Positions 17,656 through 19,659 of a stretch of 55,415 nt of DNA are shown piece by piece; positions within the stretch are counted from its first letter, which is position 1; every line of letters begins with the position of its first letter. The DNA is taken from positions 1-55,415 of the forward strand of contig KZ538661.1 of assembly GCA_000934665.2 (NCBI GenBank). Reading direction: 5' to 3'. The notes below the pieces were generated by a model, which worked only from the letters and a program-made list of their open reading frames with translations, did no database searches and was not told the DNA's origin. The position numbers and the translations under genes were made by a program. The DNA is from Catajapyx aquilonaris. Taxonomy: Eukaryota.

Positions 17656-19659
17656 ATGGCTAGGACGTCTTGGAAAATTCTTCTTCTTTCAGGACTCATG
17701 ATGGCTTCTAGTCCGTGGCTGATGGCTGATAGGATACGTCCAGAGAAGCGCCCCGTCAGCAATTTCGGGTATTTACGCATATTTGTCGCTATTTATTACG
17801 TCATATGATTATGTACAACATTTCCATTTTAGACTGACCTCACTCAGGCCATTGCCAGACGAGTTGGTAAGCCAGCATTCGTTGAACACCATACCTCTTC
17901 ATGTGTGCCAATGGCTGAATTCGGGGAGACGGAATGGCAGGCACAGTTGCCGGTCCAACAAAATCAACGCAGGATTGGTCACCACACTGGCCGAAACGGT
18001 CAGGCTATCCGTGACCGAGTGCCAAAGGCTCTTTCGGTACCACCGTTGGGGTTGCCCTCTTGGTCCTGAAAGGATTAAAATGCTTCGACAAGGTATTATA
18101 CCATTTCTTTACCGCGTCATATACAGGGTGTATCTGAACTCAGTGCCCCGACGTATATGACTGCCTTCCTAGCCACCAGAGGATCGATTTAAGTATAGGA
18201 GTCATATGTCTGGGCAGCCTCATTACTGAGATACACTCTTTAGCGATTTTTGCCTAATCGCTCCTTCTGACTTCTAAATAGAATTTTCTGGTGTAACTAG
18301 CCAAAGAGGCCTTACCACCTGTGGGCAACAAACCAACAAAGTCCGGCCCCCAGACCTTCCAGAGCCTTCTGACTGGGGGAGGGTTCGATGGGTGGCCTAA
18401 CCGACAGGATATTTTGTACTACATGTTTGCGGCCAATTATCTCCGTAATGAGGGTGCCCAGACATATGACTCCTATACTTAAATCGATCCTCTGGTGGCT
18501 AGGAAGGCAGTCATATACGTCGGGGCACTGAGTTCAGATACACCCTGTATAGCCCTTAGTGAATGCAGGCGAAAACTCTGCCTATAGAAATACTTTGGTA
18601 TGCCATTGTTCCCATTTCCAATGAAGGTGGCATGTGACACACTCTGTGCGATTTTCAGCCACCAGCGAAACTGCTCTGATGTATGCATTGTCATCTGCTT
18701 CTCTGGCATACGTTGTTGCCCGTTCCTGCGCCAATGACAAGATCTTATCTCGCTGTTCCTGCGATGACACCTTGCCTCATAACTTGACCCTGCAAGCTTG
18801 GAAAGCCGGAAGGTAAATAATTTGCATAAAGACGAAACATATTCCATACGAATGCGGATCATCTTACTCATCATGATAATTCTGACAAAAGAATCATGTG
18901 CGTGACTTTAGCCCATAATGCACCGTCTCCAATTTCAATGAAACCTAATTCCAGATGCGGTGATAATATCCAGTTTAGTCTAGGATTTTCTTTACGGCTT
19001 CTCATGTCACGACGTAAAGACAAGCAAAGGCGAGGGAAGAAAGGCTCTAGACACCAGACACCTGACATCACCCGTACGGAAGTACAGTCCACAATCAACC
19101 AGCACAACACCCTCGTTGGTCTCCAGGTCCGGTCATCTGTCACATTTGCCATACCAATGCAGTAACTCATTTTATCTTCCAGGCGATAATGAGCTCCAGT
19201 GTGGTGAAGTGCCAGTGTCACGGTATGTCCGGATCGTGCACTTTGCGAACATGTTGGCGACGGATACCTTCCTTTCGAAGCATAGCCGATGACATCATGC
19301 GCAGGTATCACCAGGCCCGCTTGATCCAGTTCCCCAACTTTTATAACCGCAAGAAGCAGAAAAGAGGCAGAATCGAACAAGGGCACAGAGTGGGAAAAAA
19401 GCTGAGGAGGACCTCTGGTCAGCTAGGGGTCAACATGACCGAGCTGGCTTCCCTGACAGAGTCACCGAACTTCTGCTGGCCGAGTGAGTTTGGGCCTGGG
19501 ACATCAGGCCGACGATGTTCGTCCCGTGATAATTGTCACGAGATGTGCTGCGGTCGGGGACACAATATTCAGATAATAAGATCATCACAGCTTTGTAAAT
19601 GTCAACAGGTAAAGTGTGACACTTGCCCTGAAACGTTCGACGCTTACAGTTGCAAATAG
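17656..19659 (+). CDS. Wnt9: Wnt9-subfamily ligand, about 391 aa, with divergent C-terminal finger
   Basis: Exons 17656-17768, 17833-18092, 18659-18812, 18955-19126 and 19183-19659; all introns GT-AG, phases consistent, 1176 nt in total. Signal peptide MARTSWKILLLSGLMMASSPWLMA. Wnt9-like motifs: NFGLT, TLAETVRLSVTECQRLFRYHRWGC, ETALMYALSSA, CSCDD, CGDN, HNTLVGLQ, CQCHGMSGSCTLRTCW, SPNFC, GTSGRRC, CCGRGHN, YSCK-stop. Confidence 0.9.
18124..18547. mobile_element. Tc1/mariner-type MITE in Wnt9 intron 2
   Basis: Near-perfect TIRs of about 110 bp (CAGGGTGTATCTGAACTCAGTG... / ...CACTGAGTTCAGATACACCCTG), flanked by TA at 18122-18123 and 18548-18549. No coding capacity. Confidence 0.9.

Follow-up and report, generated by a model that had tools for sequence, protein, structure and literature searches.

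A Wnt gene located on the plus strand of the Catajapyx aquilonaris contig KZ538661.1 (positions 17656-19659) is best explained as a real, still constrained, and fast-evolving arthropod Wnt9 orthologue, whose index finger (hairpin 3) has undergone an in-frame loss of five residues, namely V-x-W-C-C; we assign a probability of roughly 0.6 to this reading. The analysis covered positions 1 to 55,415 of the contig, and this stretch of 55,415 nucleotides (nt) is named the window in the following. The tip of hairpin 3, consisting of a tryptophan and two adjacent cysteines (W-C-C), forms site 2 of the contact with Frizzled and has been treated as a universal feature of Wnt proteins. Otherwise constrained Wnt9 genes that do without this tip are ready material for asking whether export and signalling can proceed without site 2, and whether the choice of the receptor is changed.

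The shortened index finger

The finger is encoded in the last exon of the gene. At positions 19594-19626, the plus strand reads TGT AAA TGT CAA CAG GTA AAG TGT GAC ACT TGC, which is translated to C-K-C-Q-Q-V-K-C-D-T-C. The loop between the cysteines of the C-x-C and the C-x-x-C motif thus consists of the four residues QQVK, whereas other Wnts possess nine residues including W-C-C. In alignment A1, which comprises 13 Wnts plus the query, the query shows a gap of five columns at the x-x-W-C-C of all 13 other proteins, and a comparison with the solved Wnt3a chains (7drt, 21kr) by means of HMMER gave an identical five-residue gap at f-h-w-c-c. Loop lengths were measurable in 336 of 367 Wnt sequences; for 327 of these C-termini, the value was nine. 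Among the nine exceptions were loops of 5 (one case), 8 (two), 11 (four), 12 (one), and 33 residues (one); those with 5 and 33 residues look like mispredictions. The finger loop of the Catajapyx gene, having four residues, is shorter than all 336 measured ones. An earlier interpretation of the window, named here the sequence-only reading, had described CKC-QQVK-CDTC as the outcome of an in-frame deletion of about five codons; the sequence itself, both gaps, and the loop length confirm this description.

The complete gene was modelled from the sequence. The spliced model has five exons and codes for 391 amino acids (aa), among them 22 cysteines, which is the number given by the sequence-only reading. 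All four introns (64, 566, 142, and 56 nt) are of the GT-AG type, and joining the exons gives an uninterrupted frame of 391 codons (1176 nt). Exon 1 (17656..17768) is in frame in this model and contains the ATG and an N-terminus (MARTSWKILLLSGLMMASS...), which is hydrophobic and signal-peptide-like, as judged by eye from the translation; the donor is GG/GTATTT. The Wnt domain starts in exon 2 (17833..18092), which matched profile positions 15-47 of the Pfam family wnt with 20.5 bits (cut-off 20.3 bits); here, the RWNC of the family is replaced by RWGC (N>G). In addition, we built our own Wnt hidden Markov model (HMM) from 84 matches and ran it on all open reading frames (ORFs) of at least 15 aa. 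This HMM matched exons 2 to 5, with E-values of 5e-4 for exon 2 and 1.6e-8 for exon 3 (18659..18812). The latter encodes ETALMYALSSAS...CSCDD and the start of a degenerate W-x-W-G-G-C motif, which reads WKAGRC and spans the splice between exons 3 and 4. Exon 4 (18955..19126; CGDNIQF ... INQHNTLVGLQ) gave a weak HMM match (E 0.39); it is in frame, has GT-AG sites, and aligns to Wnt9. Exon 5 (19183..19659) comprises the lipidated thumb, the linker, the whole C-terminal domain, and the stop codon. Of the 197 codons of its ORF, the last 158 matched Pfam wnt (PF00110, E 2.9e-32, 112.8 bits) at positions 151-305 of 305. The motif of the acylated serine in the thumb (hairpin 2) is present as CQCHGMSGSC, and its residues C, H, G, S, G, S, and C occupy invariant columns of alignment A1. 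Both the open frame and the intact CHGMSGSC, which had been noticed in the sequence-only reading, are therefore seen in the spliced model.

Parts of the stretch are matched by five sequencing runs. Four of them are DNA runs from a single sample, possibly the assembled one, and the fifth belongs to another study. Three of the four DNA runs were examined, and each gave one contig of 1418 nt over positions 18525-19900 with a single-copy word depth of 25-38. In comparison with the window, these contigs have 0, 1, or 4 substitutions and not a single insertion or deletion; the run from the second study covered only the intron repeat described below and not the Wnt gene. Three of the four variant sites are synonymous (T211, G342, C373) and one is the exchange V376A. 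As the variant contigs all carry the short finger, at least two haplotypes share a finger lacking the 15 nt. The contigs from three runs match the stretch without any insertion or deletion, which makes an assembly error very unlikely: the DNA itself lacks the 15 nt.

A further concern, raised together with the sequence-only reading, was a donor-like GTAAAG (19609..19614, plus strand) inside the V-K codons, from which CAG/GTAAAG could be spliced to an exon restoring WCC. No such exon was found. A regular-expression scan of all six frames detected no WCC-encoding frame on the plus strand of the window, the only WCC being part of a DUF229 gene on the opposite strand. Likewise, the Wnt HMM found no further Wnt-like piece beyond the five exons at E <1 among the ORFs of the window. 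The frame past 19608 runs on into the usual end of the family (VKCDTC...YSCK), which is followed by the stop codon. Moreover, the contig of one run has T>C at 19610, which converts GTAAAG to GCAAAG and is at the same time the cause of V376A; one allele consequently carries GC instead of GT. Since no plus-strand exon in the window encodes WCC, splicing cannot restore these residues, and the donor-like GTAAAG is probably unused as a splice site. Both an assembly error and a rescue by splicing are very unlikely.

Probable Wnt9 identity and constraint

The subfamily was assigned by means of a tree of 37 rows, from which the finger columns had been removed. The Catajapyx gene was placed inside a clade of 31 Wnt9 rows, which had a support of 100 in the Shimodaira-Hasegawa-like approximate likelihood ratio test (SH-aLRT) against six outgroup rows from Wnt1, Wnt2, and Wnt6; the classification as a Wnt9-type gene, proposed by the sequence-only reading, holds. 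The transcript-like record P0109 was a weak sister of the Catajapyx gene (support 86). A profile deduced from the Catajapyx protein and arthropod proteins lacking the cysteine pair retrieved almost exclusively Wnt9a and Wnt9b as its best 120 matches. In a word-indexed search, the best identities were just 36-39%, and several of the matches were named Wnt9. Furthermore, the protein has a linker of five residues before CCGRG (GTSGRRC-SSRDN-CHEMCCGRG), and this linker is of equal length in the named Wnt9 matches. Note that this signature (G-T-x-G-R-x-C to C-x-x-x-C-C-G-R-G) is our own observation and not a curated definition. The Wnt9 assignment suggested by these comparisons is good but not final, because the tree search was a quick one and other Wnt subfamilies were unsampled.

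In order to describe constraint, 75 columns were considered as conserved, which are those with a conservation of at least 90% in 23 canonical Wnt9 proteins. In spite of an overall divergence of about 60%, 59 of these columns, 21 of the 23 cysteines among them, are unchanged in the Catajapyx gene. Four of the 16 differences are due to the finger deletion, and most others are conservative (D>E, K>Q, V>M, L>I, E>D). Similar numbers were obtained for other fast-evolving Wnt9 proteins without the cysteine pair, namely 55/75 for beetles and 61/75 for P0109. In the XWnt8-Fz8 structure, the two adjacent finger cysteines pair with each other. Of the conserved cysteines, only the tandem pair of the fingertip is gone from the Catajapyx protein; as both were lost jointly, no cysteine is left unpaired, in agreement with the sequence-only reading. 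An AlphaFold2 model of the exon-5 product, based on an alignment of 149 rows, had a mean predicted local distance difference test (pLDDT) score of 84.9, and the values for the finger were 96-97. In this model, the finger forms a continuous beta-hairpin with strands 127-141 and 144-157 (numbering of the exon-5 product) and a two-residue turn. A Foldseek search of the PDB with the exon-5 model gave Wnt chains as the top nine hits (E<=5.5e-4), among them XWnt8 in complex with the cysteine-rich domain (CRD) of Fz8 (4f0a, TMq 0.64). The finger is thus modelled as retained, in the form of a shorter but confident, tight two-stranded hairpin. Taken jointly, the open five-exon frame, the cysteine framework, and the 3:1 bias towards synonymous variants favour a live gene, although they are no proof.

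Several observations weigh against a constrained Wnt9 orthologue. Its placement stems from the quick tree, whose only outgroups were Wnt1, Wnt2, and Wnt6, and the branch leading to it has a length of 1.85 changes per column, compared to a median of 0.36. An exhaustive HMMER search of 1.84 billion representatives found neither a close orthologue nor the gene's own product, the best identity being 45%. Near-invariant residues are changed outside the finger as well (RWNC to RWGC, W-x-W-G-G-C to W-K-A-G-R-C, H>Y, G>D, A>Y), which could signal a general relaxation. The polymorphism V376A falls on the conserved valine of the finger. Finally, none of the five runs matching the stretch is on record as RNA, and all support from reads comes from one sample, perhaps the assembled one.

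Some of these points would also be expected of an incipient pseudogene, i.e. a Wnt9 copy that is no longer under selection but still free of stop codons and frameshifts, and in which the finger deletion is one degenerative change among several. This alternative, which we consider unlikely though worth keeping in mind, would account for the long terminal branch, for the disappearance of invariant residues outside the finger (the N of RWNC; the second W and a G of W-x-W-G-G-C), for the non-synonymous polymorphism on the finger valine, and for the absence of the own product, or of any protein at least 50% identical, from the searched protein libraries. It is, however, at variance with 1176 nt remaining open over five exons that are joined by four canonical GT-AG introns, with the mostly conservative nature of the replacements at the given divergence, and with a ratio of three synonymous polymorphisms to one non-synonymous. 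Moreover, fast-evolving Wnt9 proteins without the cysteine pair have comparable scores, and the one of Penaeus is expressed. We prefer a constrained gene to a pseudogene, because the cysteines and conserved columns counted above, the motif of the acylated serine, and a confidently modelled hairpin have been kept.

Fingertip loss in arthropod Wnt9 and its predicted consequences

To judge from the sequences compared here, the loss of W-C-C is a recurrent trend of the subfamily in arthropods, and the Catajapyx gene is its extreme end. The Wnt9 proteins of Penaeus vannamei, P. indicus, and P. japonicus have the finger C-x-C-K-V-V-L-R-Y-R-V-x-C (VVLRY). In the longhorn beetles Anoplophora, Molorchus, and Aromia, the loop consists of 11 residues and ends with L-Y; in Schistocerca, it has 8 residues. 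A protein of an eriophyoid mite, which possesses the Wnt9 linker, and the records P0109 and P0172 are likewise devoid of the cysteine pair. W-C-C has been kept in caridean shrimps, lobster, porcelain crab, mantis shrimp, a millipede, molluscs, and vertebrates, and the tryptophan is replaced in two fingers that are otherwise of the W-C-C type (F in Eriocheir, T in Timema). When the trait is mapped onto the tree, four changes are required, and at least two of them are imposed by well-supported branches; this suggests at least two and probably four independent losses in arthropod Wnt9. In every lineage, both cysteines vanish jointly, as expected because they are bonded to each other. The sequence-only reading took WCC as normal for Wnts, which is correct as a rule; arthropod Wnt9, however, has lost these residues repeatedly.

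The Wnt9 of Penaeus is most instructive in this respect: it agrees with 70 of the 75 conserved columns, and the five exceptions include precisely the W, C, and C of the fingertip. Its mRNA has been described as expressed and regulated (PMC6857519). Since the knob has been lost by substitution in several other arthropods, the comparison points to a relaxed or shifted constraint on the fingertip of the Wnt9 subfamily rather than to the decay of one gene. A description of W-C-C loss in arthropod Wnt9 was not found in the literature searched, which left subscription journals largely outside. Two of the records collected for this comparison require a comment. The 570-aa prediction P0085 (Darwinula stevensoni) seems to contain two fused Wnt domains and probably results from merged neighbouring genes of the cluster. 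P0182 (Fragariocoptes setiger), which is named Wnt-5b, has the short linker of the Wnt9 type and no W-C-C, and its name may be wrong.

How the deletion could have arisen is suggested by the fingers of related proteins. Many Wnt9 proteins, including those of molluscs and some arthropods, read C-x-C-Q-V-x-W-C-C-Q/x-V-x-C. An ancestor of this kind would have had the Q-V codons twice and, consequently, a direct CAR-GT repeat at a distance of 15 nt; slippage between these repeats would yield precisely C-K-C-Q-Q-V-K-C. It is also conceivable that the cysteines were already missing in the ancestor, as they are in P0109. The data fit both origins.

What the W-C-C tip contributes is known from vertebrate Wnts. 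According to a mutational study (PMC4068752), W333 of Wnt3a is needed for binding to the Fz8 CRD and C335, which is bonded to C334, for reporter activity. The same source states that some mutants of site 2 retain binding though their reporter activity is lost, and that the effects in zebrafish embryos were mild. With respect to the valine of the finger, V337A of Wnt3a was tolerated and V337R was inactivating (PMC4068752); the polymorphism V376A of the Catajapyx gene concerns the equivalent position. More recently, a structure-function study published in 2026 (PMC13434646) reported that the luminal domain of Wntless has a hydrophobic pocket to which W-C-C binds, and that W333A in Wnt3a and W361A in Wnt5a strongly lower surface delivery and carrier-mediated release. 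As W-C-C also docks Wnts on Wntless, its absence should affect both export and Frizzled binding, and we regard altered export as a consequence that is as likely as altered Frizzled binding.

For the Catajapyx gene, we propose the following. The protein would be made and acylated on the serine of the thumb, and its lipid would still enter the groove of the Frizzled CRD (site 1). Missing, however, would be the hydrophobic W-C-C knob, with which other Wnts engage both site 2 of the Frizzled CRD and the luminal pocket of Wntless. The result would be a ligand with a weaker or altered Frizzled contact and an altered Wntless-dependent export; a short range, a low affinity, or a dependence on other receptors are plausible outcomes.

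A bolder generalization, which we put forward only tentatively and hold to be possible rather than probable, is that arthropod Wnt9 shed W-C-C at least twice, and probably four times or more, because neither export nor signalling of these ligands needs it. They would then reach the surface without making use of the Wntless pocket for hairpin 3 and act via the lipid thumb alone or via a receptor other than Frizzled, and the Catajapyx gene would be a natural minimal form. If this were true, Wnt9 would put to a natural test the recent claim that secretion requires all three Wnt hairpins.

A different function had been proposed by the sequence-only reading, namely that of a decoy, an antagonist, or a ligand of altered specificity, which binds Frizzled by means of the lipid thumb only and possibly shares the enhancers of wg. 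Taken as a dedicated decoy or antagonist that blocks Wg, this idea is speculative and, in our opinion, improbable. It is compatible with an intact thumb motif next to an absent site-2 tip and with the loss of reporter activity in site-2 mutants of Wnt3a, some of which still bind (PMC4068752). On the other hand, the W-C-C tip is needed for the Wntless-dependent surface delivery and release of Wnt3a and Wnt5a (PMC13434646); therefore, a protein without the tip may be poorly exported rather than compete well. A cluster Wnt9-Wnt1-Wnt6-Wnt10 has been described (PMC6429082). A search with Pfam and the Wnt HMM detected no other Wnt exon in the window, i.e. neither in the 17.6 kb upstream nor in the 35.7 kb downstream of the gene. 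The assertion that the gene is encoded next to wg is accordingly not borne out within these limits, and shared enhancers are unsupported there. Least credible, and already largely refuted, is an artefact, in which the 15 nt were lost by an assembly or sequencing error or are restored in the mRNA via GTAAAG: this hexamer resembles a donor and a single sample is the source of all reads, but the independent contigs of three runs at single-copy depth, both haplotypes lacking the 15 nt, the direct course of the frame to the family's usual end, the missing plus-strand WCC, and the GC allele all contradict it.

Gene surroundings and related Wnt proteins

Intron 2 of the Wnt gene harbours a foldback repeat resembling a miniature inverted-repeat transposable element (18120..18551; 432 nt), which lies outside the protein-coding parts. 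Its terminal inverted arms of 114 nt are 98% complementary, and the element is flanked by TA at either end. The contig word depth, summed for this element in the DNA runs, was 4e4-1.7e5, compared to about 25-38 on the flanks; as this depth is far above that of the flanks, the repeat belongs to a very abundant family. Within the window, it occurs as a single copy. Positions 1-17600, which precede the Wnt gene, gave no match to a Pfam family in ORFs of at least 75 aa. The downstream neighbours are three tandem paralogues of DUF229 (PF02995, sulfatase-like) on the minus strand (21729-23180, 25585-27138, and 34839-36358), each seen as two long exons, a DnaJ gene on the plus strand (40333-42200), which has a J domain and DnaJ_C in two ORFs, and a plus-strand ORF with an FKBP-type prolyl isomerase domain (52855-53739). 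The best named relatives of the DUF229 genes are insect proteins with 42-47% identity.

Four groups of proteins are suited for a comparison with the Catajapyx gene. Canonical Wnt9 proteins (vertebrate WNT9A and WNT9B; those of mollusc, millipede, lobster, crab, caridean shrimp, and mantis shrimp) belong to the same clade and share with it the short five-residue linker before CCGRG as well as the finger context C-x-C-Q-V ... Q/x-V-x-C. In contrast to the Catajapyx gene, all of them carry V-x-W-C-C (with F for W in Eriocheir), and their identity to the exon-5 product is about 35-45%. The Wnt9 proteins of Penaeus vannamei (records Wnt9, Wnt9a, and Wnt-9b; P0318-P0322), P. indicus, and P. japonicus resemble the Catajapyx gene in that the tryptophan and the tandem cysteines of the fingertip are absent (CRCKVVLRYRVQC), whereas the other conserved cysteines and the acylation motif are retained. 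However, they lost the tip by substitution and kept a loop of nine residues, while the Catajapyx gene has a five-residue deletion and a loop of four; in addition, they are otherwise slow-evolving, while the Catajapyx gene is located on a long branch. The insect Wnt9 proteins of Schistocerca, Anoplophora, Molorchus, and Aromia, which are designated 'Wnt-4-like' after Drosophila Wnt4, also belong to the Wnt9 clade and have no tandem cysteines. Their loops of 8 or 11 residues, which start with R/H-W, differ from that of the Catajapyx gene, which groups elsewhere on the tree. Finally, the engineered fingertip mutants of Wnt3a (W333A, C335A, F331A/W333A) and Wnt5a (W361A) remove the same contact residues as the Catajapyx deletion; among the effects reported for them is a loss of binding to the Fz8 CRD or of TCF reporter activity (PMC4068752). 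These mutants are point changes of canonical Wnts that were tested in vertebrate cells, whereas the Catajapyx gene represents a natural deletion of five residues in a divergent Wnt9.

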